From IMG/VR virus record IMGVR_UViG_2529293213_000037: a stretch of 10,347 bases of DNA; one strand, given 5' to 3'. A model generated the notes under the pieces. That model did not search any database. It saw only the letters and a list, made by a program, of their open reading frames with translations, and was not told the origin of the DNA. Of this stretch, positions 1 to 10,347 are shown piece by piece. The position numbers and the translations under genes are program-made. Source of the stretch: a virus. Its lineage: Duplodnaviria > Heunggongvirae > Uroviricota > Caudoviricetes. How positions within the stretch are numbered: position 1 is the stretch's first letter; each line of letters opens with the position of its first letter.

Positions 1-213
1 GGCAGGGCGGGGTATGCCGGGTTTATCCTCGCAGACAATAAATTTATAAGCGCAGTCCTGAGCTGCCGGGAATTGCTCCAGAAATTGCCAGTGAAATTTT
101 GCGCGTGCGCGACGCTCATCACCGGCTTCAATGGCAGTGGCCACCGCAACAGCGCTATCTTCTTTTATGGCCTGTTCGTCAGGAATAGCAGCGCAAATAA
201 AGATTTTACTCAT
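1..213 (-). CDS. Hypothetical protein, N-terminal 71 codons only; gene continues past the left edge of the window
   Basis: ATG at 213-211 on the minus strand opens a frame with no stop to position 1 (MSKIFICAAIPDEQAIKEDSAVAVATAIEAGDERRARAKFHWQFLEQFPAAQDCAYKFIVCEDKPGIPRPA...). GAGGT lies 9 nt upstream. By synteny it sits where ydfE sits downstream of ydfD in Qin-type operons, but I do not recognise the protein. Confidence 0.5.
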   Translation of the reverse strand, partial: MSKIFICAAIPDEQAIKEDSAVAVATAIEAGDERRARAKFHWQFLEQFPAAQDCAYKFIVCEDKPGIPRPA

Positions 214-306
214 TGTGTTTTAACCTCATTACAGATTTAAGGGTGAACAAATCCCTGCCATTGCTGGCATATAAAAATGAAACCGGATATTAATTACGGT
301 GCTGTT

Positions 307-498
307 TTAAAGTCCTGCCGGTATTTCGTTATTATTAGTGTGAGTAGTTTTATCTACCGGATAACAGTTACCGGGAATTTTTTGTTCTGCTGCTGCAGCC
401 ATGCATTCTTTCATTGAACCGTATAAGCCAGTCACCAGCTCAAGAGATTCGCCGGAAACAAGATAAACTGTCAGAACGAGTGCAAATGTTGTATTCAT
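307..498 (-). CDS. ydfD: Small membrane protein, YdfD-like (63 aa; Qin-type lysis protein family)
   Basis: 63-aa ORF with an N-terminal hydrophobic segment (TTFALVLTVYLVSG). Its ATG overlaps the stop of the upstream DicB-like gene (ATGA overlap at 495-498). AAGGA Shine-Dalgarno 8 nt upstream. Size and position immediately after dicB match YdfD from memory. Confidence 0.6.
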   Translation of the reverse strand: MNTTFALVLTVYLVSGESLELVTGLYGSMKECMAAAAEQKIPGNCYPVDKTTHTNNNEIPAGL

Positions 499-683
499 TG
501 TTTATATCCTTTTTGCAGCAGGTCCAGACGAGCCAGCATTGAAGGAATGCATACTTCATTTAACAGGTCCTGCTCGAGTTTTCTCTGCTTAATGGCGTCT
601 TCAATAAATGTTTTGTCTCCAGTGATAACGCCAATTTCGAAACGAAGTTCAGACGTGCTGGCATTACATGATAACTTTTCCAT
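495..683 (-). CDS. dicB: DicB-like cell-division inhibitor (62 aa, MinC-activating family)
   Basis: Internal ATG at 683-681 with GAGGA 7 nt upstream gives a 62-aa product (MEKLSCNASTSELRFEIGVITGDKTFIEDAIKQRKLEQDLLNEVCIPSMLARLDLLQKGYKQ) that matches DicB as I recall it (FEIGV, FxEDAIxKRK, SMLARL). The longer 98-aa ORF in the track has no RBS and is probably an upstream extension artefact. It lies about 180 bp downstream of the DicF-like RNA. Confidence 0.7.
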   Translation of the reverse strand: MEKLSCNASTSELRFEIGVITGDKTFIEDAIKQRKLEQDLLNEVCIPSMLARLDLLQKGYKQ

Positions 684-863
684 TATCGCGTCCTCAACAA
701 TGAATTTTGTGATGCGGTGCCTGGTGCCTCCAGGTGACGTTAACCAGTTAACAATTAACGCCGGATACAGAGCATTCTCGTTACTCAGCAAATGACCGCT
801 TTACCGATTTAACTGTTCCGCGTGCGCTGAGCCGCATTCACCGCATCACAAAATTCACTTTTA

Positions 864-920
864 AAAAAGGGCGGCAGAGCAGTTACGGAGTAAAACTGAT
901 ACCGCCAAATGTCACCAGAA
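864..920 (-). ncRNA. dicF: DicF-like small RNA (ftsZ-targeting sRNA of the dicB operon), including its intrinsic terminator
   Basis: The minus-strand sequence AUUCUGGUGACAUUUGGCGGUAUCAGUUUUACUCCGUAACUGCUCUGCCGCCCUUUUUU matches my recollection of DicF with about 3 mismatches. It ends in a GC-rich stem plus U-tract. Ends are approximate (+/- 3 nt). Confidence 0.7.
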
Positions 921-1256
921 TATTGATAACAGAGGGCGTTGCAGCGGGGTTGTCACTTAAGCGTATGGTCAACCTGACAACCCGGTGTCCTCAACGGGGA
1001 AAGAATAACCCCGCCATACTTACCGCCGCGCCATTTCGCGGATTGCCACAACCGGAAGCGCACGGTCGAATTAAATTTAACGACGGCTCTAAGGGAGAAG
1101 GACTTCGCCGTGCACTTTCGTGTTATGCCCTGACTTTTCAGGGATATATCCTTTCAGTAAACTGTCAGTGCCGGATTCTTATCTGTGTCCGGCGCACGAC
1201 CACACGTAGCAGCGTGTTGGTCTCCATTTTTAATTCAGCCCTTAATGGAGGATAAA

Positions 1257-1442
1257 ATGCCAAACAAACCATGCCCTGCCTGTAACGCTCTTTCTGGCTT
1301 TTTAGAGAAGGGCGGTTATTACATTTTTAACTGTCCAGAACATGTTGAATTTCATATATCAAAACTTGACAGTATCATTACAAAGCCAAATCAGTATCAG
1401 TCTGATTTACTGAATAAAGAGTTAAACGCCGCCCGAGATTAA
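1257..1442 (+). CDS. Small zinc-ribbon-like protein (61 aa; CxxC ... CxxH), encoded antisense within the dicB-type operon
   Basis: ATG at 1257 preceded by GGAGGA (4-nt spacer). Product MPNKPCPACNALSGFLEKGGYYIFNCPEHVEFHISKLDSIITKPNQYQSDLLNKELNAARD has a CPAC ... CPEH pattern typical of a zinc ribbon. Not recognised as a named gene. Confidence 0.4.
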   Translation: MPNKPCPACNALSGFLEKGGYYIFNCPEHVEFHISKLDSIITKPNQYQSDLLNKELNAARD

Positions 1443-1479
1443 GGGCGTAGTGGCCCATTAAAAATATTGCAAAGACCAA

Positions 1480-1632
1480 CTATTGTTGAACTGGATTAAA
1501 CCAGTAATTCTCTATTGCTCTTATTGTTACCATCGGATGATTGCCGGGGGTTATTTTAAGTTCGGGAGGAAAAGGCTCTCCATCAGCAGCCATCATTGAG
1601 TATGTGAAATCCGCCGACGCAGTCCCTTTCAT
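1480..1632 (-). CDS. Either a 50-aa translationally coupled small ORF or the C-terminal part of the frameshifted upstream gene
   Basis: ATG at 1632-1630 overlaps the upstream stop (ATGA). The same frame is open upstream back to about 1838 without an ATG, which suggests a fusion with 1629-2018 after a -1 shift. Product ...MKGTASADFTYSMMAADGEPFPPELKITPGNHPMVTIRAIENYWFNPVQQ. Confidence 0.35.
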   Translation of the reverse strand: MKGTASADFTYSMMAADGEPFPPELKITPGNHPMVTIRAIENYWFNPVQQ

Positions 1633-2018
1633 GATAATTCCGAATTTTTCAAGTAATGAGAGCAGTTCCGGTAATCCTGTGTCATCTGAATAACTTTCCT
1701 CATAGAAAGAAGCGATTGCCGCAGGAGATGACAGTTCTCGCTCTGCAATTTTTTTGTAGTTTTCCAGAATTCTTTTTTTGAATACTTTTCCTCGACATGA
1801 AAACCCATCACCGAGGCAATCCGCTTTGCAGTTTCTTCAGTATTCTGGTTGTTTGTTACCGAAACAGAGTACAATCCGGTAAACGCATCGCGCACATTAC
1901 GAGCCATATTATCAATGTATTTCTTCGTTGCAGATTCTAATTCAACTTCGTTCAGACGTTGGTGAAGTGCATGTGCTGCAATTTCCTGGATTTCTTTTAG
2001 TAAATCTTTAAATTCCAT
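1629..2018 (-). CDS. Hypothetical early-left operon protein at the ydfC position; annotated frame of 129 aa, but probably frameshifted at an A7 tract
   Basis: ATG at 2018 with GGAG 7 nt upstream. N-terminal part (MEFKDLLKEIQEIAAHALHQRLNEVELESATKKYIDNMARNVRDAFTGLYSV...) looks like real coding. After the A7 run (minus strand of 1773-1779) the annotated frame uses rare codons (AGG, CGG x2) while the -1 frame stays open to 1480 and reads more protein-like. Confidence 0.55.
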   Translation of the reverse strand: MEFKDLLKEIQEIAAHALHQRLNEVELESATKKYIDNMARNVRDAFTGLYSVSVTNNQNTEETAKRIASVMGFHVEEKYSKKEFWKTTKKLQSENCHLLRQSLLSMRKVIQMTQDYRNCSHYLKNSELS

Positions 2019-2029
2019 CTTTAACTCCG

Positions 2030-2158
2030 TTAGTCGTTAGATTTTGCCGAACTGGAAAGCGCCTGTTTAAACTCACTGAAGCTGAGAGCTTCCTCGCCTT
2101 CGGCAAGGCCTTCGAAGTATTCTTCGTAAGCCTTTTCCATGATTGTGTCGAAATCCAT
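2030..2158 (-). CDS. ydfB: YdfB-like small protein (42 aa)
   Basis: ATG at 2158-2156, one nt after the ydfA-like stop. Product MDFDTIMEKAYEEYFEGLAEGEEALSFSEFKQALSSSAKSND. Below the 60-aa cut-off of the ORF track. Size (42 aa) and position match YdfB of the Qin dicB operon. Confidence 0.5.
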   Translation of the reverse strand: MDFDTIMEKAYEEYFEGLAEGEEALSFSEFKQALSSSAKSND

Positions 2159-2159
2159 A

Positions 2160-2315
2160 TCACTCACCTGAGTTTCTTTCCAGCCAGCGACGGGCACCAT
2201 TTTCGGTTTTAAACGTTTTGCTTTTGGTATACGTCATCGCGGTGAATGTACCGTCCTGGTTGGGAAACACGCCGTACACCAGAGATTCGTTGTTGCCAAG
2301 ATCGATAGTATCCAT
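2160..2315 (-). CDS. ydfA: YdfA-like small protein (51 aa)
   Basis: ATG at 2315-2313 with GAGGT 4 nt upstream. Product MDTIDLGNNESLVYGVFPNQDGTFTAMTYTKSKTFKTENGARRWLERNSGE. First gene after the second operator/promoter. Size and position match YdfA. Confidence 0.6.
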   Translation of the reverse strand: MDTIDLGNNESLVYGVFPNQDGTFTAMTYTKSKTFKTENGARRWLERNSGE

Positions 2316-2501
2316 GTTGACCTCATTTCCCCTTAACGCCGGGTAGCGGAACAAAAACCTGCTGCATAGTTATTAAAGTTGAACCCTGCCGTCATGTTCA
2401 TACGCCTCGGGCTGGCTACTTACCCCCTGACCACTGCTTGGTAACTCGAAGTATTGCCCGGCGTTCTGTGGGGCGGGGTGGGTGGTTGGTGTATGTAATC
2501 T

Positions 2502-2540
2502 ACAATAAAAAACTGTTTTTGTGTCAACAGTTTTTAATTG
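2502..2540. promoter_or_regulatory. Operator-like palindrome (second copy) overlapping a consensus -35 TTGACA on the minus strand; candidate repressor-controlled promoter of the dicB-type operon
   Basis: ACAATAAAAAACTGTT-(spacer)-AACAGTTTTTAATTG. The left arm is identical over 16 nt to the site at 3537-3552. The revcomp of 2522-2527 is TTGACA. It lies just downstream of the ParE terminator and about 190 nt upstream of the ydfA-like gene. Confidence 0.5.
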
Positions 2541-2550
2541 TTGTTTTGGG

Positions 2551-2574
2551 CAAAAAAATCCCTCGAAAGAGGGA
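2551..2574 (-). terminator. Rho-independent terminator ending the repressor-antitoxin-toxin operon
   Basis: Minus-strand hairpin UCCCUC-UUUC-GAGGGA followed by U7 (revcomp of A2552-A2558), about 20 nt after the ParE stop. Confidence 0.55.
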
Positions 2575-2592
2575 GTATGAAAATTGTTCAAC

Positions 2593-2880
2593 TCAGATAG
2601 AGAAGGGAAATTGTCGCCGAGAATGTGTCACGCTTACAATCTCAATGCTTGAAGCAGCTACTCTGTACAGGATTATGTAGTTAGGGTGGGTCACGATCTC
2701 TCTCAATCCAGAAACCCGTTCGCTTGGTGGATATAAGTACGGATGCTCAGATAGAGGTAATACCGATGTTTCAATGCGTATTTTTAGTCTACGTGCTGCC
2801 GGTGGGTTCTCCTTGGCGATGTAAGTTATGATCTGGCGCAAATCATCGCGAGCAGACGGTAGCCATAAAATGGGTAACAT
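2593..2880 (-). CDS. parE: ParE/RelE-superfamily toxin (95 aa), type II toxin-antitoxin system
   Basis: Product MLPILWLPSARDDLRQIITYIAKENPPAARRLKIRIETSVLPLSEHPYLYPPSERVSGLREIVTHPNYIILYRVAASSIEIVSVTHSRRQFP... has the ParE-family hallmarks. Its start overlaps the stop of the upstream antitoxin gene by 1 nt (TAATG). Confidence 0.8.
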   Translation of the reverse strand: MLPILWLPSARDDLRQIITYIAKENPPAARRLKIRIETSVLPLSEHPYLYPPSERVSGLREIVTHPNYIILYRVAASSIEIVSVTHSRRQFPFSI

Positions 2881-3071
2881 TACTCGCTCTTGTTAGTTAC
2901 AGCAATTTGAGCAATAAGATTTTCCATTTCAGCCATTACCTCGTCATGTGGAATTGCGGGGCGAGTGTCTGCAAGGCTTGACGTTACTTTAGTGCGCAAC
3001 CATTCGTTGTAACTGTTTTCTTGTTCGGTAGTTTCGAATTCTGAAACTATCGGAGAAAGGGCTGTACCCAT
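2880..3071 (-). CDS. paaA: Antitoxin (63 aa) of the three-component ParE system, PaaA-like
   Basis: Product MGTALSPIVSEFETTEQENSYNEWLRTKVTSSLADTRPAIPHDEVMAEMENLIAQIAVTNKSE. GAGGAG Shine-Dalgarno 7 nt upstream. Sits 27 nt after the repressor stop and is directly coupled to the ParE gene. Size and sequence resemble the PaaA2 antitoxin from memory. Confidence 0.7.
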   Translation of the reverse strand: MGTALSPIVSEFETTEQENSYNEWLRTKVTSSLADTRPAIPHDEVMAEMENLIAQIAVTNKSE

Positions 3072-3098
3072 GGCATAACTCCTCTTCTTGTACTGTGG

Positions 3099-3500
3099 TC
3101 ACGCCCGGCGGCTTTTTTGTGCCGCCAGCCACCTAGCAATGGTTTCTTCCATTGATTTTTTCTTGTCTTTGATTTCTTGAAGCATTTTTTCTTGGTCTTC
3201 CTCAGGAAACGCACTAAAAGCTTGGAGCAGTTCGCGTTGGCGAGGACCAATTTTCATCGTGTCAGGGGTGAAAATTTGCTCACACTCTTCAGGAGGCAAT
3301 AAAAACCAATGCAATGGATGCCCTGAAACCTCAACCAGTTTATCCAAACTTGAGGCTTTAGGTGTAGCCTTACCGCTGACCCATTGTTGAACAGTTTGTT
3401 GTGTCACACCAATTCTACGGGCAAGCTCAGCCTGGCTCCATCCAGTTTCCTGAAGAAGCTTGCTGATTCTGTACATAGATACTTCTAGGGCGCTCATCAT
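3099..3500 (-). CDS. XRE-family HTH repressor (DicA/RacR/PaaR-like, 133 aa); probable prophage immunity repressor and regulator of the TA operon
   Basis: N-terminal HTH (QAELARRIGVTQQTVQQWVSG) and a C-terminal domain resembling DicA. Divergent from the Cro-like gene. No Shine-Dalgarno before the ATG, and a TAAAAT -10-like hexamer sits about 7 nt upstream, so it may be leaderless. Confidence 0.8.
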   Translation of the reverse strand: MMSALEVSMYRISKLLQETGWSQAELARRIGVTQQTVQQWVSGKATPKASSLDKLVEVSGHPLHWFLLPPEECEQIFTPDTMKIGPRQRELLQAFSAFPEEDQEKMLQEIKDKKKSMEETIARWLAAQKSRRA

Positions 3501-3608
3501 TATTCAATTTTACAGGTAAATACTGTTAAAAGCATCACAATAAAAAACTGTTGATTGCATACAGTTTTTTATTGTAGGTTTTGCTTATAGTTTTTAGAGG
3601 AGGGCAAA
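3501..3608. promoter_or_regulatory. Divergent promoter/operator region between the repressor and the Cro-like gene; perfect 14-bp inverted repeat at 3538-3574
   Basis: CAATAAAAAACTGT-(9 bp)-ACAGTTTTTTATTG is a perfect palindrome. TATAGT -10-like hexamer at 3586-3591 on the plus strand and TAAAAT on the minus strand. Confidence 0.6.
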
Positions 3609-3881
3609 ATGCTAGATAGCACTCGCGAAAAAATTAGGCAGAAATACACTCAGGCTGAAATAGGTCGTTATATGGGGGTCGCTCAACAGACTGTTTGGCA
3701 ATGGTTTAGCTTTGGCGTTCCCCCAAAGCAGGTAATTCCGTTATGCCAACTAATGAAGTGGGAAGTTACCCCGCATGAAATCCGCCCAGATATTTATCCT
3801 AACCCAACCGACGGTTTACCTGTTGGATGTAAGGTTAACACATCAAATGCGCCGGAGTTGATTCATGAAAATCAAGCATGA
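3609..3881 (+). CDS. ydaS: Cro/CI-type HTH protein, YdaS-like (90 aa)
   Basis: GAGGAGGG Shine-Dalgarno. HTH (QAEIGRYMGVAQQTVWQWF) followed by the WEVTPHEIRPDIYPNPTDG motif typical of the YdaS family. Overlaps the downstream gene by 17 nt. Confidence 0.75.
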   Translation: MLDSTREKIRQKYTQAEIGRYMGVAQQTVWQWFSFGVPPKQVIPLCQLMKWEVTPHEIRPDIYPNPTDGLPVGCKVNTSNAPELIHENQA

Positions 3882-4290
3882 ACACATCCGCATGGCGATG
3901 AATGCCTGGGCGCATCCGGACGGCGAAAAAGTACCGGCTGCGAAAATTACCAAAGCGTATTTCGAGCTGGGAATGACGTTCCCGGAACTGTATGACGACA
4001 GCCATCCGGAAGCCATGGCTCGCAATACTCAGAAAATTTTCCGCTGGGTGGAGAAAGACACTCCTGATGCGGTTAAAAAAATTCAGGCGTTGTTACCAGC
4101 GATCGAAAAAGCGATGCCGCCTCCGCTGGTGGCCCGAATGCGCAGCCACAGTTCCGCTTATTTTCGGGAGTTGGTAGAGACGAAGGAACGGCTGGTGAAA
4201 GATATTGATGATTTCGTTGCATCAGCGATCGTTCTGTTCGATCAGATGAATCGTGGTGGCCCGGCAGGAAACACTCTGGCTGTGCATTAA
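3865..4290 (+). CDS. ydaT: YdaT-like protein (141 aa), the partner of YdaS in Rac-type prophages
   Basis: Starts MKIKHEHI..., with GGAG 7 nt upstream. Co-oriented with and overlapping the ydaS-like gene. Family assignment is from memory. Confidence 0.65.
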   Translation: MKIKHEHIRMAMNAWAHPDGEKVPAAKITKAYFELGMTFPELYDDSHPEAMARNTQKIFRWVEKDTPDAVKKIQALLPAIEKAMPPPLVARMRSHSSAYFRELVETKERLVKDIDDFVASAIVLFDQMNRGGPAGNTLAVH

Positions 4291-4303
4291 TTGGGTAATA
4301 AAT

Positions 4304-4813
4304 ATGAGTAATGACAAAAAATTGACACTGAGCGTTTACGAAAACAGTCCGCACATCTGGCGTGGCGGTTTATCTGATGTGGAGCTGGCAGAGTGGTTGA
4401 TACATAAAGCTAATGCGCTGCTCTGGCGTTTGTCAGCCAGAGAACAGCGCAAGGAAACCAGAATAAAGCTGGCTGATGCAGAAGCGTGTGCCGGGCTTAT
4501 TGAGGATTATACAAATCTTGGTATTTCTTCAGCAGAGAGTGATCCCATTCAGCCTCTGAGCAGGGAGTCAATCCAGCACGCTGGTTGTATGGCACATCTT
4601 GTAACTGCTCGTCAACATGAGGTGGGTATTGGATCACTTCCGGCGGGATATTCGCTGATTCCAGAGCTGGTTGAAGCAAGAAAATCAGTTCAGAAAAAGA
4701 GAGATGACGCACTTCAATTATTGAGAGAGCACTATGGCGCGATACCAGAATGCGAACAGCGTCGATACCCTGAAGGTTATGAATGGATGCAGTCTCTTTT
4801 TGAAGTTCGCTAA
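4304..4813 (+). CDS. Hypothetical phage early protein (169 aa)
   Basis: Long ORF co-oriented with the operon, product MSNDKKLTLSVYENSPHIWRGGLSDVELAEWLIHKANALLWRL.... Weak Shine-Dalgarno. The track places the start at a GTG at 4253 that overlaps the ydaT-like gene; the ATG at 4304 is preferred. Confidence 0.55.
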   Translation: MSNDKKLTLSVYENSPHIWRGGLSDVELAEWLIHKANALLWRLSAREQRKETRIKLADAEACAGLIEDYTNLGISSAESDPIQPLSRESIQHAGCMAHLVTARQHEVGIGSLPAGYSLIPELVEARKSVQKKRDDALQLLREHYGAIPECEQRRYPEGYEWMQSLFEVR

Positions 4814-5030
4814 TCAATATGTCGAGACGAAGGTATGTTTCGGCGCGCAGCCAGGCTCTGTAATCCGGGAGCATTTCGGGGCTGTTACACCAGCGGTTTG
4901 TTGCTGCAACATTTAATACATGAGCCTGATAAAGGCTTTTCAAAAAATACATGTCGAACCTCCTCTGGTTCTGTCGATTGGGAACCACAGATTATATCCG
5001 GAGGAAGGTTCGGCACCAGATGAGGTAGCC

Positions 5031-6122
5031 ATGCGTGATTACGCAAAAGTTTCTCCGCGATTCTGGCTGGGAGAAACGGGGAGAGAACTTAGAAAGGCGG
5101 GTGCAGAAGCGCAAGTTGTTGCTTTTTACCTGATGACATCCCCTCACGCAAATATGCTGGGTTTGTATTACCTGCCAGTTTTATACCTTGCTCATGAAAC
5201 CGGGCTTGGTCTGGAAGGGGCTTCAAAGGGGCTTAAAAGGGCTGTTGAAGCTGGTTTTTGTAGCTATGACCATGATGCAGAGATGGTCTGGGTCCATGAA
5301 ATGGCAGCCTGGCAGGTTGGGGAAACGTTGAAGCCTGGCGATAACCGTTGTGCAGGTGTCAGGAATGAGTATGCATCATTACCTGAAAACGCTTTTCTGT
5401 CAGTGTTTTACGACAGATATAAAACGGATTTCCATCTGGATGTGAGGCGGAATAATAGCCGAAATTCGGTAAGGGGCTTCGAAGGGGCTTTTAAGGGGCT
5501 TCGAAGCCAAGAACAGGAACAGGAGCAGGAGAAAGAACAGGAACAGGACAAAAACACTATGGTTCATGGCAAAAAAAACACCACGAACCAGGCAGGGGAT
5601 GTTCAGACCGTCAATCCTGGTCAGCCAGCAGGCACGACACCGGAAGCCGATTCGGGCGCTGTGCAGCAGGTGATGACCGCAGGGTCGGAGCAATCACACC
5701 AACTGCAGCAGCCTGAAGCCGATTCCGCCATTCAGCGGGAAGCCGATCGGGTAGTCCCGGAAAGCACCGGGCAGTCTGTGGGACGAGTGGATTATCCGGA
5801 TGTGTTCGAACAGGTCTGGCGGGAATACCCGTTGCGTGCTGGGGCAAACCCGAAGAAATCCGCTTTCAGTGCCTGGAAGGCCAGATTGCGCGAGGGGGTG
5901 CCACCAGAGACCATGCTGGATGGTGTGAGGCGTTACGCGAGATACCTGGCGGCGACCGGGAAAGCGGGAACGGAATTTGTTCAGCGAGCGACGACGTTTT
6001 TTGGGCCGGACCGGAATTTTGAAAACCCCTGGTTGCTCCCGGTAAGCGGCACGAACAACCAGCGTTGTGTGAATCATATTTCTGAACCGGATACCGAAAT
6101 TCCGCCGGGATTCAGGGGGTGA
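5031..6122 (+). CDS. Phage replication initiator / replisome organiser (lambda O-like role), containing internal iteron-like repeats
   Basis: ATG at 5031 with GAGGT 4 nt upstream; an in-frame ATG at 4920 without a Shine-Dalgarno is an alternative start. It sits immediately upstream of the DnaC-like loader gene. The internal DNA repeats are translated as GLEGASKGLK and RGFEGAFKGLR, followed by a (QE)n linker. Confidence 0.7.
   Translation: MRDYAKVSPRFWLGETGRELRKAGAEAQVVAFYLMTSPHANMLGLYYLPVLYLAHETGLGLEGASKGLKRAVEAGFCSYDHDAEMVWVHEMAAWQVGETLKPGDNRCAGVRNEYASLPENAFLSVFYDRYKTDFHLDVRRNNSRNSVRGFEGAFKGLRSQEQEQEQEKEQEQDKNTMVHGKKNTTNQAGDVQTVNPGQPAGTTPEADSGAVQQVMTAGSEQSHQLQQPEADSAIQREADRVVPESTGQSVGRVDYPDVFEQVWREYPLRAGANPKKSAFSAWKARLREGVPPETMLDGVRRYARYLAATGKAGTEFVQRATTFFGPDRNFENPWLLPVSGTNNQRCVNHISEPDTEIPPGFRG
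5213..5244. repeat. Iteron-like direct repeats, cluster 1 (AAGGGGCTT-type, 10-bp spacing)
   Basis: AAGGGGCTTC / AAAGGGGCTT / AAAAGGGCTG in tandem inside the replication gene. Confidence 0.45.
5471..5508. repeat. Iteron-like direct repeats, cluster 2: three AAGGGGCTT copies at 11-bp spacing with a palindromic GCTTCGAAGC core; candidate origin
   Basis: AAGGGGCTT at 5471-5479, 5482-5490 and 5493-5501. GCTTCGAAGC is its own reverse complement. Followed by a repeat tract and an A-rich stretch (5550-5580). Confidence 0.55.
5511..5549. repeat. Tandem hexanucleotide repeat (GAACAG-like x6) encoding a QEQEQEQEKEQEQ linker
   Basis: gaacag gaacag gagcag gagaaa gaacag gaacag, seen directly; in frame within the replication gene. 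Confidence 0.8.
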
Positions 6123-6128
6123 TGTGGC

Positions 6129-6875
6129 ATGAAAAACATTGCGGCAGCCGGGGTTCTTGAACGTATTCGCAGACTTGCACCACAGGCGTCGGTTCCACCG
6201 TACCGGACGGTGGAGGAGTGGCGGGAATGGCAACTTGCTGAAGGACGAAAACGCAGCGAGGAGATTAACCGCCAGAATCACCAGTTGCGGGTGGAAAAAA
6301 TCCTGAATCGTTCGGGCATCCAGCCTCTGCACAGCAAATGCTCGTTTGCGAATTATCAGGTGCAGAACGACGGGCAAAAATACGCGCTGAGCCAGGCCAA
6401 ATCCATAGCTGACGAACTGATGACCGGGTGCACGAATTTTGTGTTCAGCGGTAAAACCGGCACCGGGAAAAATCACCTTGCAGCGGCGATGGGTAACCGG
6501 CTGATGGCGAAGGGGCGCAGCGTGATTATCGTCACCGTGTCTGATGTCATGAGCGTGTTGCATGACAGCTACGACAACGGCAAATCCGGGGAAAAATTTT
6601 TACAGGAGCTTTGCAGTGTTGATTTGCTGGTCCTGGATGAAATAGGCGTTCAGCGGGAGACGAAAAACGAGCAGGTGGTATTACACCAGATAATTGATCG
6701 CCGGACAGCATCACTGTGCAGTGTCGGGATGTTAACAAACCTGAATCATGCCGCAATGAGTACACTTCTTGGTGAGAGGATTATGGACCGCATGACCATG
6801 AACGGTGGTCGATGGGTGACGTTTAACTGGGATAGCTGGCGTCCAAATGTCAGCAATATGAGGGTTGTGAAGTAA
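6129..6875 (+). CDS. DnaC-like replicative helicase loader (AAA+ ATPase, 248 aa)
   Basis: Walker A FSGKTGTGKNHLAAA and Walker B LLVLDEIG. Starts 7 nt after the initiator gene stop. The motif resembles E. coli DnaC as I recall it. Confidence 0.85.
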   Translation: MKNIAAAGVLERIRRLAPQASVPPYRTVEEWREWQLAEGRKRSEEINRQNHQLRVEKILNRSGIQPLHSKCSFANYQVQNDGQKYALSQAKSIADELMTGCTNFVFSGKTGTGKNHLAAAMGNRLMAKGRSVIIVTVSDVMSVLHDSYDNGKSGEKFLQELCSVDLLVLDEIGVQRETKNEQVVLHQIIDRRTASLCSVGMLTNLNHAAMSTLLGERIMDRMTMNGGRWVTFNWDSWRPNVSNMRVVK

Positions 6876-6896
6876 TTTTGTCCGGAGGAAATTTTA

Positions 6897-7667
6897 ATGG
6901 AAACCGTATCTGACGCACTGAAAGCACTGAAAAAAGCCTCTTCACATGTGGTGGCAGCTCGCCTTGGAATCAGTCGTGAAGAGGCTGTCAACGAGCTGTG
7001 GGAACTCAAAATAAATGGCGTCGTTGATAAAACTGGTCACACCTGGTTTCTGGCTGGCGAAGGTGAATCCCGGGTAACCGAAGAGCGGCCAGTAAAATCT
7101 GAAGCACAGGATATGCTGACCGGGGAGGTCGAACAAAAAGTTACCGCAGACATGATGATTGAGTTTATCGGTCAGGATGGGGCTAAAACGTGTGAGGAAC
7201 TGGCGGGTAAGTTCGGTGTCAGTACTCGCAAGGTTGCTTCCACGCTGGCGGTGGTAACCGCAACGGGGCGGCTGGCACGCGTTAATCAGAACGGTAAATT
7301 TCGTTACTGCATGCCGGGCGATAATTTACCAGCAGAGCCGAAAGCCGCGCTGGTAACGGAAAGTGATGGTAAGGCCTTTCCTCAGCCAGCAGGTGCTGCG
7401 TTACCAGTCCGGGAAGCCGCAACACAGGAAGAAATTAAAACAGAAACTGTGGCGGACATTGTGCAGCCGTTGCCATCGTTTACCGAAACGCAAGCAGATG
7501 AGCTGATTTTTCCGTCCCTTCGCAGGGCAAACCTGGCGCTGCGCAGGGCGAAAAGTGATGTTCAGAAGTGGGAGCGAGTCTGCGCCGCGCTGCGGGAGCT
7601 GAACAAGCACCGGGATATTGTTCGACAGATTACTGATTCTTCCCGCCGTGTTGTATCGGAAAAGTGA
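6897..7667 (+). CDS. Hypothetical phage protein (256 aa), possibly with two winged-helix-like segments
   Basis: GGAGGA Shine-Dalgarno 7 nt upstream. Co-oriented and tightly packed with neighbours. Product METVSDALKALKKASSHVVAARLGISREEAVNELWELK.... Confidence 0.6.
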   Translation: METVSDALKALKKASSHVVAARLGISREEAVNELWELKINGVVDKTGHTWFLAGEGESRVTEERPVKSEAQDMLTGEVEQKVTADMMIEFIGQDGAKTCEELAGKFGVSTRKVASTLAVVTATGRLARVNQNGKFRYCMPGDNLPAEPKAALVTESDGKAFPQPAGAALPVREAATQEEIKTETVADIVQPLPSFTETQADELIFPSLRRANLALRRAKSDVQKWERVCAALRELNKHRDIVRQITDSSRRVVSEK

Positions 7668-7682
7668 TTGCCGGAGGCGCTT

Positions 7683-8096
7683 ATGGCAAAAGTATTTACA
7701 CAGGAAGAGCGGGAAAAAATTAAAGGGCAGGTTGTTGAGCTAGTACGCCGGAGTGGGCGCGAGACGTTACGGCAACTGGAAGCCAAGACAGGTGCGACAA
7801 GATATCTGATGAGCGTTCTTGCCAGAGAGCTGGTTGCCAGTGGCGATGTATACAACTCTGGTTACGGGTTATTCCCATCTGAACAGGCTCGTAAGGACTG
7901 GCAAAACGCCCGCAAAAAACTATCGAGGGCAAAACTGAAGAAACCGGTTGTGGTTGATCCTGACCTTATCTGGTCATTACCAGACGGAGAAATACGCCGC
8001 TATGACAGGCAATTGAACATAATTTGTAGTGAGTGCCGTAACAGTGAAGTGATGCAGCGAGTTTTGATATTTTACACAGGAGTAATGATGGAATAG
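7683..8096 (+). CDS. Hypothetical phage protein (137 aa)
   Basis: ATG at 7683 with GGAGG 5 nt upstream (the track starts at a TTG at 7668). Product MAKVFTQEEREKIKGQVVELVRRSGRETLRQLEAKTGATRYLMSVLARELVASGD.... Confidence 0.6.
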   Translation: MAKVFTQEEREKIKGQVVELVRRSGRETLRQLEAKTGATRYLMSVLARELVASGDVYNSGYGLFPSEQARKDWQNARKKLSRAKLKKPVVVDPDLIWSLPDGEIRRYDRQLNIICSECRNSEVMQRVLIFYTGVMME

Positions 8097-8447
8097 TGAA
8101 AATAACATGAAACCTTTGGATTCTGGTGTTTCAGTGGATGGGAAAAGAGCAGATACATAGAAAATGAATAGCAATAATTCACAGTCTGGATGTTGTTTGT
8201 ATGCTTATAAAATGATCCTAGTATGCATTGCCGGAGTTGAATCAGCTCCAATGAAGAAACTGAGAGGAGTATTTAGAAGATAGCTAAATGGATGTAATTA
8301 TTAGTATCTAAAAAATAGTATTTTTGAAATGGGTCTAAGAACACAACAATGTACAAATGAGAAGTTATCTTTTAATATGTTCAAAGACCCATTAGGATTG
8401 ATATCAGTTATGTTAGCTAGATTGATAAAGTGATTACATATTTTCTG

Positions 8448-9221
8448 TTATATGCTGAAATGAATAATGCTATTCCAGAGTGCAGCAGAGAAAGTCTCCT
8501 GATGATTGAGCTCTGGAAATTGTACAATAGAAAAATTACTGTATTTTTCTGTCAAAATATTTCTCAAAACAGATTCCGCTTTGATGGCTTCAGGATATAA
8601 AGATGCGGAGTAATCAAGGCTAAGATTTCCGTTAAGCAAGCATATACTTTTAGTGTGCTTTGATTCTGATATATCATCTTTAATTATCTTGATGATTCTT
8701 TCATTCTGCCATAGAAGTGATGGTGCAGATATATAATAATAGTTAAAGCATGAATTATTTTTTAAGCAATCAAGCACAAAAATAGCACCTAGCGAGTGCC
8801 CCCATATACCGATTCTGGAACTGTTCGGAGCAATAGTACTAACCCATGGCATGATCTGAGTTAGTAATAATTCTCGGAAAGACTGGCTTCCTCCACCAGT
8901 AAAGTAGATCCATGCTGGTTTAGAGTTATCAACAATAGCATTTTCACCATCAGGAGTATAATCGTAAGCACGGCGATGAATGCTAAGGTTATTCCAAGAT
9001 TCATAACCAAGTGTAACTAACACTGGTGGATTGGGTAGTGCATCAATAACAGGCAGAATATCAGAAATGTAATTGTTGGCACTATTCCCATCAAGTATAT
9101 AAAGAGTTGCATTATTTTTTTTAATGTTTTTTGGAGTAAAAATACATATTTTATATTTGGTGTCATGGTTAATTGAGTTAAATATGCGTGTTTGACAATG
9201 AATGTCCATATGTTTAGTCAT
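8448..9221 (-). CDS. Alpha/beta-hydrolase, putative esterase (esterase D / Fes / IroE-like family), 257 aa; AT-rich cargo gene
   Basis: GGGGAG Shine-Dalgarno 5 nt upstream of the ATG. Nucleophile elbow GHSLG (IWGHSLGAIF), an LDGNS motif near the N-terminus and a C-terminal NHQET candidate catalytic His. No obvious signal peptide. Roughly 30-35% GC versus about 50% in flanking phage genes. Convergent with the phage operon. Confidence 0.8.
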   Translation of the reverse strand: MTKHMDIHCQTRIFNSINHDTKYKICIFTPKNIKKNNATLYILDGNSANNYISDILPVIDALPNPPVLVTLGYESWNNLSIHRRAYDYTPDGENAIVDNSKPAWIYFTGGGSQSFRELLLTQIMPWVSTIAPNSSRIGIWGHSLGAIFVLDCLKNNSCFNYYYISAPSLLWQNERIIKIIKDDISESKHTKSICLLNGNLSLDYSASLYPEAIKAESVLRNILTEKYSNFSIVQFPELNHQETFSAALWNSIIHFSI

Positions 9222-9825
9222 GCGTTCTCCCCATGAGCATTAAAGGATGCTTAAGATATGCTATGTCACTGATAAAAAATTTGTTGTGTGTGTTTAGTTA
9301 TTTTATCTACCTCCATTATGATTTAAGACTGATATATGTTATCAGCAAAGGTACATCGTTATTATTTTACCTGTCAATACATTTGATATTGATTATCGTT
9401 TACATCGCTTGCTTAGGAAATTGAAGGCAGGTAACTATCATGTCAATGAACTAACCCACAGTCTAACGTACTTCTTTCCCCAATCACCAACAACCAAATT
9501 CCTGTTATCACCACTGGGATTTTGGCGCAACTTCATGGTGCAGAGGTAAATAGCATCAAGCAAAATCTCTTTTTCCGTTGTTGTCCTTATGGGACGTCTG
9601 TCTTTCTGACCGATTTCATATTGGCGAGGTAATGGGAAGTTAAGTAGAATAGCTGCGGGTGCTTGAGGCTATCTGCCTCGGGCATGAACACCAACGGCAG
9701 ATAGAGAAAAGCCCCAGTTAACATTACGCGTCCTGCAAGACGCCTAACATTAATCTGAGGCTCAATCTATGAACGGCAAATCTAGGTTAGCCTCTTACGT
9801 GCCGAAAGGCAAGGAGAAGCAGGCT

Positions 9826-9981
9826 ATGAAGCAGCAAAAGGCGATGTTAATCGCCCTGATCGTCATCTGTTTAACCGTCATAGTGACGGCACTGGTAACG
9901 AGGAAAGACCTCTGCGAGGTACGAGTCCGAACCGGCCAGACGGAGGTCGCTGTCTTCACAGCTTACGAACCTGAGGAGTAA
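9826..9981 (+). CDS. hokD: Hok/Gef-family type I toxin (51 aa), closest to HokD (RelF)
   Basis: Product MKQQKAMLIALIVICLTVIVTALVTRKDLCEVRVRTGQTEVAVFTAYEPEE, about one substitution from HokD as I recall it. AAGGAG upstream. The track ORF (from 9769) is an in-frame N-terminal extension. No relBE-like ORFs upstream. Confidence 0.8.
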   Translation: MKQQKAMLIALIVICLTVIVTALVTRKDLCEVRVRTGQTEVAVFTAYEPEE

Positions 9982-10050
9982 GAGACCTGGCGGGGGAGAA
10001 ATCCCTCGCCACCTCTGATGAATCAGGCATCCTCAACGCACCCGCACTTA

Positions 10051-10074
10051 ACCCGCTTCGGCGGGTTTTGTTTG
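10051..10074 (+). terminator. Rho-independent terminator downstream of the hok-like gene
   Basis: ACCCGC-UUCG-GCGGGU hairpin (UUCG tetraloop) followed by UUUUGUUU. Confidence 0.6.
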
Positions 10075-10255
10075 CGCGCTGAATGCGCAGGGTGAAAAAT
10101 AACCATATATTTGATTATATACACAACAAAAAATAAAAGTCATTGTACCTGCACATTAAATAATCAAATATACGGCGTGAAATAAATATTTTTCAGATTA
10201 ATATTTTTGTCTCTATGTGGATATAACCGTTTGTACTTATAAACTCGGAGGCATC

Positions 10256-10347
10256 GTGGAAAAAATAAAGAAACTATTTAGTTGCAAATACGCAGTCATA
10301 CGTCGTGATGACCTGTCAGTTATAGTCGAAATGGATTACTTCCCTGA
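10256..10347 (+). CDS. Possible 5' end of a gene running off the right edge (GTG start)
   Basis: GGAGG 4 nt upstream of the GTG at 10256. Open frame VEKIKKLFSCKYAVIRRDDLSVIVEMDYFP... to the end of the window. Preceded by an AT-rich promoter-like region. Confidence 0.3.
   Translation, partial: MEKIKKLFSCKYAVIRRDDLSVIVEMDYFP

Follow-up and report, generated by a model that had tools for sequence, protein, structure and literature searches.

The region at positions 2593-3500 of the window (the whole stretch of 10,347 nucleotides that was analysed) is almost certainly the already described paaR1-paaA1-parE1 operon of the Escherichia coli O157:H7 cryptic prophage CP-933M/Sp4. The original prediction of a prophage repressor followed by a ParE toxin-antitoxin (TA) pair is correct, yet the arrangement is already known and not new. 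The prediction spoke of a resemblance to the paaR-paaA-parE systems of E. coli prophages; beyond mere resemblance, the operon is one of the two original systems.

The identity of the locus was established at the DNA level. Window positions 1-10073 are 100% identical to the chromosome of O157:H7 FRIK944. The same positions are 99.98% identical to Sakai, where they fall within the region annotated as "prophage Sp4, lambda-like phage" and the operon corresponds to ECs_1067-1069. Sp4 of Sakai is CP-933M of EDL933 (PMC2884950), and the second paaR-paaA-parE system, the paralogue of paaR2-paaA2-parE2, is sited on CP-933M (PMC8630535; PMC4803016). According to the papers that cite the work, paaR1-paaA1-parE1 was named and tested in 2010 by Hallez et al. 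(Mol Microbiol 76:719; cited in PMC8630535, PMC4803016 and PMC3141249). Each O157:H7 genome contains exactly two paaA-parE places. The locus tags ECs1067-1069 gave no match in the literature. Compared with the published CP-933M locus, the operon shows no difference at all, and divergence is confined to the final 274 bp of the window, past the hok terminator at 10073, which differ from both FRIK944 and Sakai. Thus, the prophage of the source strain may be a mosaic relative of Sp4 and not Sp4 itself. CP-933M/Sp4 is a cryptic prophage with IS elements.

The operon is made up of the following features:

3099-3500, minus strand: paaR1, a 133-aa helix-turn-helix (HTH; XRE/DicA-type) regulator and first gene of the operon (open reading frame and Pfam HTH_3)
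2880-3071, minus strand: paaA1, a 63-aa PaaA-family antitoxin without a DNA-binding domain (Pfam PF21217)
2593-2880, minus strand: parE1, a 95-aa ParE-family toxin (Pfam PF05016 and PDB 5cw7_B)
2552-2574, minus strand: intrinsic terminator ending the operon (terminator scan)

These three are real genes and not chance open reading frames. ParE1 matches Pfam ParE_toxin at 2.9e-17 (63.5 bits, cut-off 23) and PDB ParE2 (5cw7_B) at 3e-36 over residues 1-93, with 67% identity to ParE2, which bears out the ParE-fold homology predicted for 2593-2880. PaaA1 has a single domain, Pfam PaaA2, at 5.6e-19 (68.3 bits, cut-off 27), with the match limited to the 33-residue PaaA2 toxin-binding motif. It also matches PDB PaaA2 (3zbe/5cw7) at 1.4e-20, and its identity to PaaA2 ranges from 62% (global) to 70% (local). 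The NCBIfam label of PaaA1, "RelB family antitoxin," comes from a 45-position model. A canonical ParD-ParE pair was rejected because PaaA1 carries the PaaA2 motif only and lacks an N-terminal RHH DNA-binding domain. PMC4803016, citing Hallez 2010, reports that PaaA1 does not neutralise ParE2, nor PaaA2 ParE1, and the same paper reports both O157:H7 systems to be functional and specific.

The gene junctions agree with the predicted order of a 27-nt gap, a 63-aa antitoxin, a 1-nt overlap, a ParE toxin and a terminator, all of which were found in place. The gap separates the paaR1 stop (3099) from the paaA1 ATG (3071) and contains a Shine-Dalgarno sequence, AGAGGAG (3085-3079), 7 nt 5' of that ATG. 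The paaA1 stop and parE1 start form TAATG, in which base 2880 is common to both genes. The terminator stem-loop, TCCCTCTTTCGAGGGA at 2574-2559 (minus strand), has a 6-bp stem with four GC pairs, a 4-nt loop and a T7 tail (TTTTTTT). The hairpin also appears in the MFE RNA fold, and an equivalent hairpin and T-run occupy the same place in the related loci L005 and L006. A scan of the minus strand from 3500 to 2593 found no terminator-like or promoter-like site. The operon is reported to be transcribed as one unit from a sigma70 promoter located before paaR (PMC4803016, citing Hallez 2010; also PMC8630535). By homology, transcription of paaR1 would continue across both TA genes and end at the terminator (2552-2574). 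PaaA1 would be translated from its own Shine-Dalgarno sequence, and ParE1 translation would be coupled to that of PaaA1 through TAATG.

The regulator was described in the original prediction as an XRE-family repressor facing a Cro-like gene, and both proteins were recognised by domain searches. PaaR1 matches Pfam HTH_3 at 2.3e-12 and Phage_CI_repr at 7.4e-5, and its HTH is similar to that of the 434 repressor. The label "DicA/RacR-type" held for its first half only. PaaR1 is 28% identical to K-12 DicA over 111 aa, nearly full length (E 4e-11), and the two share a C-terminal ELLxxFxAxPE motif. The NCBIfam DicA model NF007257 matches residues 11-130 at 8.4e-14 (model positions 9-131 of 135), with a score of 51.5 bits that is below the cut-off of 101. 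Judged by these matches, PaaR1 is DicA-like in architecture and not a DicA orthologue. A RacR-type repressor was rejected, since the two proteins resemble each other in the HTH alone (34% identity over 53 aa, E 0.008); what PaaR1 has in common with RacR is position only, divergent from ydaS-ydaT. The alignment with the paralogous system was close for ParE and PaaA and partial for PaaR2, to which PaaR1 is 42% identical over residues 37-133 (E 4e-20). The C-terminal 50 aa contain 30 identical residues, and the N-terminal HTH halves are not alike.

PaaR1 would act as the CI-equivalent repressor of the prophage, with an N-terminal HTH and a C-terminal domain of the oligomerisation type. That the regulator is the prophage's own repressor, as predicted, is supported, the CI-equivalent role having been shown experimentally for the paralogue PaaR2 (PMC8630535). 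Peptidase_S24 is absent from the 18 Pfam matches to the 133-aa protein, as the S24 self-cleavage domain is from PaaR2 (PMC8630535). A cleavable repressor of the lambda CI or LexA type was rejected on the short length of PaaR1 and the missing C-terminal S24 peptidase domain. Without autocleavage, RecA-dependent induction is not expected.

The surroundings of the operon are those of a lambdoid cryptic prophage immunity region of the CP-933M/Sp4 type: ydaS and ydaT genes, the Sp4 annotation, paired 15-mers at OR and OL and an exact YdaT site are all present. The regulatory and flanking features are as follows:

3537-3575, either strand: OR, two inverted copies of the 15-mer ACAATAAAAAACTGT (3537-3551 and 3561-3575) between paaR1 and ydaS
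2502-2541, either strand: OL, two inverted copies of ACAATAAAAAACTGT (2502-2516 and 2527-2541) just past the terminator
3551-3556 and 3575-3580, plus strand: candidate PR, -35 TTGATT and -10 TAGGTT, overlapped by OR
2527-2522 and 2502-2497, minus strand: candidate PL, TTGACA and TAGATT, overlapped by OL
3512-3507, minus strand: -10 TAAAAT of candidate PRM (region 3500-3526), 6 nt before the paaR1 ATG (3500), with no Shine-Dalgarno sequence
3512-3526, either strand: possible weak third operator, ACAGGTAAATACTGT, an 11/15 match to the 15-mer
3858-3875, either strand: YdaT operator (OM site), TTGATTCATGAAAATCAA, at the ydaS/ydaT junction, the only exact TTGATTN6AATCAA in the window
3609-3881, plus strand: ydaS-like gene (Cro-equivalent), divergent from paaR1 (Pfam YdaS_toxin 8e-10; phrog_35 9e-29)
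3865-4290, plus strand: ydaT (CII-equivalent activator; Pfam YdaT_toxin 1.2e-9; phrog_163 "CII-like transcriptional activator" 4.3e-46)

The two OR copies are 100% complementary in the repeat search, with centres 24 bp apart. The motif search found only four copies of ACAATAAAAAACTGT in 10.3 kb, and each of them belongs to OR or OL; in the shuffle control four copies were reached in 2 of 200 shuffles. By homology with the paralogue, PaaR1 would bind these pairs at OR and OL and shut off two operons, ydaS-ydaT to the right and ydfA...dicF-dicB to the left. YdaS would compete with PaaR1 at the same sites, as Cro does. The -10 of candidate PR is poor. Candidate PL is tentatively assigned as the promoter driving ydfA-ydfB...dicF-dicB, because its 19-nt spacer is longer than optimal. 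In this downstream operon YdfA and YdfB are 100% identical to the Qin proteins, and the DicF sRNA and DicB- and YdfD-like proteins are also encoded. Downstream of PL, at 2395-2490, is a conserved GC-rich leader. It matched nothing in Rfam even at E<=1 and did not resemble the HK022 put region, and its four nearly identical copies showed no covariation. The terminator, immunity-specific repeats and conserved leader have the same layout in three other loci.

The spacing of 6 nt between the PRM -10 and the ATG, together with the lack of a Shine-Dalgarno sequence, implies a leaderless paaR1 mRNA, which would most likely start at the ATG from a PRM-like promoter. The same spacing occurs in the paaR2 locus (GATAAT-N6-ATG), for which leaderless translation was demonstrated by 5' RACE and N-terminal sequencing (PMC8630535). 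At PRM, the minus strand yielded no sigma70 consensus in the promoter scan, which is expected of a weak, activator-dependent promoter and is no proof of one. TTGATTN6AATCAA is the published YdaT site, located at the end of ydaS (PMC9986795), and YdaT activates PRE933P of the paralogue (PMC8630535). The site at 3858-3875 thus marks a candidate PRE-equivalent, through which YdaT would activate a second route into the paaR-paaA-parE operon.

PaaA1 would neutralise ParE1 through direct binding. Once free, ParE1 would, as a ParE-fold toxin and by homology, poison DNA topology and induce SOS. The original prediction also coupled toxin expression to lysogenic repression. When the paaR2 operon is switched on, active toxin is not released (PMC8630535); thus, the coupling holds for transcription and not for toxin activity. 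The TA pair sits at the position of lambda rexA-rexB and, in the lysogenic state, would share a transcript with the repressor. From its homologues, the most likely role would be addiction: if the immunity region were lost or replaced, the labile antitoxin would no longer be made, the cell would be killed and the region would thereby be stabilised.

Many prophage-borne TA systems are defence systems, and the pair could instead serve mainly in phage exclusion (abortive infection), as lambda rexAB does. We consider this improbable. The location beside the repressor gene and expression in the lysogenic state are consistent with it (PMC9986795; PMC8630535), but PaaA1 and ParE1 match none of the PADLOC defence models. 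Moreover, the sole phenotype tested in the family is post-segregational killing with plasmid stabilisation, and toxin activation was seen in neither state of the switch (both PMC8630535).

A second alternative concerns the operon itself. It could be an ordinary two-gene paaA-parE system with its own promoter, lying beside an unrelated repressor gene, so that the transcripts are separate and no three-component unit exists. Such an arrangement would be compatible with the strong Shine-Dalgarno sequence of PaaA1 in the 27-nt gap, with the partial repression of the paralogue operon by the PaaA2-ParE2 complex itself (PMC4803016) and with the suggestion that the TA pair was an insertion into a pre-existing immunity region (PMC8630535). 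It is nevertheless very unlikely, for several reasons. First, the gap is short and the minus strand has neither a terminator-like nor a promoter-like site. Secondly, the genes are linked: 507 genomes carry 80% or more of the 1221 bp that run from OL through the three-gene operon to OR, compared with 510 complete genomes that carry the paaR1 allele. Third, three immunity types have their genes in the order regulator, antitoxin, toxin with gaps of 17-27 nt, and the regulator's conserved C-terminal domain accompanies the TA pair. Lastly, co-transcription has been reported for the family (PMC4803016).

A decayed, non-functional remnant is the least credible reading, for although CP-933M/Sp4 is cryptic with IS elements and several neighbouring genes are pseudogenes in the related locus L003, the three open reading frames are intact and full-length relative to solved homologues, 437 complete genomes carry the 479-bp paaA-parE segment at 99% identity or more, the operators, terminator and Shine-Dalgarno sequence are intact, and both O157:H7 systems are reported to work (PMC4803016).

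The paaA-parE pair is found in 833 of 5426 complete E. coli genomes (about 15%), behind a prophage repressor gene in every locus inspected, and three different immunity types have the same three-gene layout in the same syntenic position. The operon had no match among 50,697 phage records, in which only the leader beyond OL was matched; judged by this result, the cassette belongs to chromosomal prophages. It is possible, though we hold it with less than even confidence, that the two O157:H7 paralogues are fully insulated in their repressor DNA-binding domains, operators, Cro-like proteins and non-cross-protecting antitoxins, and that a cassette of the regulator C-terminal domain, paaA and parE moves between immunity types, each policing its own region. 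If true, such cassettes would be lethal to recombinants in which immunity modules are exchanged among the many co-resident lambdoid prophages, which would possibly shape EHEC prophage mosaics.

As a discovery the locus carries little weight: its name dates from 2010, and how the sister locus is wired was established in 2021. As far as could be found, the PaaR1 operator code (the 15-bp ACAATAAAAAACTGT, two sites 24-25 bp apart at both OR and OL) has no earlier description. The analysis also corrects the annotation, since the RefSeq "helix-turn-helix domain-containing protein," "RelB family antitoxin" and "RelE/ParE family toxin" are PaaR1, PaaA1 and ParE1, respectively. In addition, it provides concrete predictions of operators and promoters for the CP-933M copy, which has been studied less.

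The closest known system is paaR2-paaA2-parE2 of CP-933P/Sp12, for which a TA pair embedded in a lambda-like bistable lysogeny switch was shown experimentally in 2021 (PMC8630535) and for which ParE2/PaaA2 structures are available (3ZBE, 5CW7, 5CZE and 5CZF). The two loci have in common the three-gene order, spacing and immunity-region position divergent from ydaS-ydaT, as well as the YdaT operator, the -10-to-ATG spacing and an OL/PL set beyond the toxin gene, analogous to PL933P/OL1-3 (PMC8630535). YdaT is 86% identical to its CP-933P counterpart. In contrast, the N-terminal DNA-binding half of the regulator, YdaS and the operators are unrelated, with ACAATAAAAAACTGT pairs here and GTTTAGTAA repeats in CP-933P. 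Similarity between the two YdaS proteins was undetectable in our comparison, which fits a different immunity specificity. The locus is thus heteroimmune with CP-933P, and regulatory details of PaaR2 are not simply transferable to PaaR1. Each operator region has two clear sites here and three or four in CP-933P, and ParE1 is 3 residues longer than ParE2.

Lambda cI-rexA-rexB also places accessory genes after the repressor gene, on one lysogenic transcript as predicted here, and the repressor is probably leaderless. Operator sets flank both sides, about 1 kb apart here and 2.4 kb apart in lambda, and both have a Cro-equivalent in divergent orientation, as well as a CII-equivalent with a PRE-like promoter (PMC8630535). 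However, PaaR1 is related to CI in the HTH only, and the accessory genes are a TA pair and not RexAB. The Qin prophage of K-12 has a homologous PL operon, ydfABC-dicF-dicB; there, dicA is followed by ydfA after 166 bp with no TA pair between them. Lastly, omega-epsilon-zeta and pasABC likewise place DNA binding and neutralisation on separate polypeptides (PMC3141249; PMC4803016), but their protein families are unrelated, and here the regulator is also the master repressor of a prophage.

The three genes lie on the minus strand of the window, with a terminator behind them and two divergent genes in front, as follows.

2593-2880, minus strand: toxin gene parE1, 95 aa
2880-3071, minus strand: antitoxin gene paaA1, 63 aa
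3099-3500, minus strand: regulator gene paaR1, 133 aa
2574 to 2552, minus strand: intrinsic terminator (stem-loop then T-run) downstream of the toxin gene
3609-3881, plus strand: YdaS/Cro-like gene facing the regulator gene
3865-4290, plus strand: YdaT gene, labelled CII-like activator in PHROGs

Between the regulator and antitoxin genes lie 27 nt with the Shine-Dalgarno sequence AGAGGAG 7 nt upstream of the antitoxin ATG, and the antitoxin and toxin genes have one base in common within TAATG. Every feature described in the original prediction (three genes, 27-nt gap, 1-nt overlap and terminator) was present. The ParE-fold homology expected of 2593-2880 was also found. The 95-aa protein matches Pfam PF05016 (2.9e-17) and the crystallised E. 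coli O157 ParE2 (5cw7_B; 3e-36, 67% identity), and by these matches it is assigned to the ParE-family toxins. The sole motif matched by the antitoxin is the PaaA2 toxin-binding motif PF21217 (5.6e-19), and it aligns with the solved PaaA2 structure 3zbe (1.4e-20). The regulator carries an XRE/434-type HTH and no peptidase domain. PaaA1 is entered in RefSeq as 'RelB family antitoxin' with relB as gene name, and for some genomes as 'hypothetical protein'; the entry for ParE1 is 'RelE/ParE family toxin'. The NCBIfam match of the toxin is to a RelE/StbE mRNA-interferase model, barely over the cut-off (28.4 vs 27.9 bits). These names could wrongly lead one to expect an mRNA interferase instead of a ParE-type toxin.

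Positions 1-10073 match the O157:H7 FRIK944 chromosome at 100% identity and the Sakai strain at 99.98%. In Sakai, the three genes bear the locus tags ECs_1067 (annotated 'plasmid stabilization system protein'), ECs_1068 and ECs_1069 (annotated 'phage repressor protein') and lie within the annotated 'prophage Sp4, lambda-like phage' adjoining yccA. Sp4 corresponds to CP-933M of EDL933 (PMC2884950), which carries a homologue of paaR2-paaA2-parE2 (PMC8630535), and each O157:H7 genome has exactly two paaA-parE places. Together, these observations indicate that the window holds paaR1-paaA1-parE1 itself and not a mere relative, which supports the predicted likeness to the paaR-paaA-parE systems of E. 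coli prophages. As Hallez et al. 2010 is summarised in PMC4803016, the operon is co-transcribed, with a sigma70 promoter upstream of paaR, and ParE2 is not neutralised by PaaA1, nor ParE1 by PaaA2.

The 15-mer ACAATAAAAAACTGT occurs four times at no more than one mismatch in the 10.3-kb window, in the two pairs listed here and nowhere else in it.

3537-3551 and 3561-3575: OR-like inverted pair between paaR1 and ydaS, centres 24 bp apart, overlapping candidate PR (TTGATT-N18-TAGGTT)
2502-2516 and 2527-2541: OL-like inverted pair immediately past the terminator, overlapping candidate PL (TTGACA-N19-TAGATT)
3512-3526: weaker match ACAGGTAAATACTGT (11/15), overlapping the candidate TAAAAT promoter of paaR1
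3858-3875: single exact YdaT site, TTGATTN6AATCAA, on the ydaS/ydaT junction

The pairs appear to be OR- and OL-like operator sets, about 1 kb apart, that bracket the operon. PR and PL, which have imperfect hexamers and spacers, are put forward as candidates, and ACAGGTAAATACTGT could be a weak OR3. In CP-933P the high-affinity YdaT site is likewise placed at the ydaS/ydaT junction (PMC9986795). No Shine-Dalgarno sequence was found upstream of paaR1; the -10-like TAAAAT ends 6 nt upstream of its ATG, a spacing equal to that at paaR2 (GATAAT-N6-ATG), the mRNA of which is leaderless by 5' RACE and protein sequencing (PMC8630535). By analogy, the paaR1 translation start is likely leaderless.

For this copy, the mechanism with the best support is that worked out in the paralogue (PMC8630535), carried over here on the basis of the conserved anatomy. 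In the paralogue, the regulator acts in the place of CI by repressing PR and PL. YdaS takes the role of Cro through competition at overlapping sites, and YdaT that of CII as the activator of a PRE-like promoter. The switch is bistable, the TA pair is transcribed to some level in both states with no detectable toxin activation, and the region is addictive, since post-segregational killing stabilises an unstable plasmid (PMC8630535). PaaR1 would similarly repress PR and PL as CI-equivalent, the YdaS of the window would compete at overlapping sites as Cro-equivalent and its YdaT would activate a PRE-like promoter as CII-equivalent. The CP-933M copy would then be a bistable switch, with paaA1-parE1 transcribed to some level in both states without detectable toxin activation, and its immunity region would be addictive through post-segregational killing.

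A two-gene TA that is merely adjacent to a repressor gene is unlikely, because the spacing is tight, the genes are linked and the layout recurs. In all six loci inspected, paaA-parE lies downstream of a repressor gene divergent from ydaS/ydaT-like genes. Of 5426 complete E. coli genomes, 510 carry the paaR1 allele, 507 contain 80% or more of the 1221-bp stretch 2400-3620 (OL, three-gene operon and OR), and 833 have a paaA-parE pair of any type. The three-gene operon was not found in any sequenced phage of the phage collection searched. A Rex-like phage-exclusion role has nothing in its support and is improbable, and decay of the locus is contradicted by its intact ORFs and signals and its high conservation.

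Immediately downstream of candidate PL/OL is a GC-rich leader, about 95 nt long (ACCCACCCCGCCCCACAGAACGCCGGGCAATACTTCGAGTTACC...AGCCAGCCCGAGGCGTATGAACATGACGGC; 2395-2490, minus strand). It has counterparts in three E. coli comparison loci, at ~3765-3860 in L003 (CP-933P type), ~2275-2370 in L005 and ~2245-2340 in L006. The leader is nearly invariant over three immunity types while the adjoining operators are wholly different, and about 11 temperate phages of E. coli also carry it, at 91-97% identity. Rfam gave no match, the HK022 put region showed no similarity, and there was no covariation by which a fold could be assessed. The element may act as a cis-acting RNA or nut-like site at the start of the early-left transcript.

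Three other features lie towards the far end of the window.

9657-9831, plus strand: sok RNA (RF01794, 105.6 bits)
9826-9981, plus strand: Hok-family ORF, annotated hokD, part of a complete hok/sok type I toxin-antitoxin (9657-9981)
8448-9221, minus strand: gene for an alpha/beta hydrolase of 257 aa, flanked by the replication/DUF977 genes and hok

The hok/sok system is a second addiction module within one 10-kb prophage stretch. The hydrolase has a high content of Asn, Ile and Lys, and its gene resembles a prophage insert of foreign origin (moron). Identity to FRIK944 and Sakai stops abruptly at 10073/10074, just past the hok terminator hairpin ACCCGCTTCGGCGGGTTTTGTTT, where a different module takes over for the final 274 bp. 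For 9800-10347, the best match among complete E. coli genomes does not exceed 98.9%. The position 10073/10074 thus reads as a mosaic junction.

The repressor had been predicted to be of the DicA/RacR type. The DicA part stood, as alignment of PaaR1 to K-12 DicA gave 28% identity (E 4e-11) over nearly the full length, including the C-terminal ELLxxFxAxPE motif, and the NCBIfam DicA model was matched end to end with a score under its cut-off. The RacR part held only for gene position, since likeness to RacR is restricted to the HTH. The leftward operon past OL is the Qin-type ydfA-ydfB...dicF-dicB-ydfD, with YdfA and YdfB 100% identical to the K-12 proteins and with DicB- and YdfD-like proteins present. 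However, in Qin ydfA directly follows dicA, whereas in the window the TA pair, terminator and OL are interposed. Two features of this early-left operon are as follows.

869-920, minus strand: DicF antisense sRNA (Rfam RF00039, 76.9 bits)
495-683, minus strand: DicB-like cell-division inhibitor, 55% identical to K-12 DicB

With ParE1, the dicF/dicB-like genes place a second host-toxic function under one repressor.

L003 was taken as the CP-933P-type reference. Its regulator begins MQKKE, the PaaR2 start determined by N-terminal sequencing (PMC8630535), and its ParE is identical to the PDB sequence. Alignment to this paralogue, proposed in the original prediction for the three operon proteins, gave 67% identity for ParE, 62% global and 70% local identity for PaaA and 86% for YdaT, but no detectable similarity for YdaS. 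PaaR1 is 42% identical over residues 37-133 and at 30/50 of its final residues, whereas its N-terminal DNA-binding half is unrelated. This pattern is that of a classic swapped immunity module, in which the repressor DNA-binding domain, operators and cro appear to have been exchanged. L006 has a third immunity type with a 166-aa regulator, in which the C-terminal 50 residues are shared again (34/50 identical); for PaaA and ParE of this locus, identity is 84-85%. The C-terminal domain of about 50 residues (ELLQxFxAFPxEDxE...ARWLAAQKxRRA) is therefore alike over the three types (60-68% identity) while the HTH domains are unrelated, which places a recombination boundary inside the repressor gene. 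It is encoded at the following positions.

3099-3250, minus strand: window
4491-4640: L003
2956-3105: L006

This domain appears to have been inherited along with paaA-parE. L005 (strain Z1323CEC0011) has the PaaR1/YdaS immunity type of the window (98% and 83% identity) with a different YdaT (3774-4295, 173 aa, 38% identity); thus, the CII-equivalent seems exchangeable independently of the repressor/Cro pair. The system itself is not new: the present locus has been known from 2010, and the concept of a TA embedded in the lysogeny switch from 2021. To it, this analysis makes two modest additions: the operator/promoter map of the CP-933M copy, and the regulator C-terminal domain that accompanies the TA cassette in all three immunity types.
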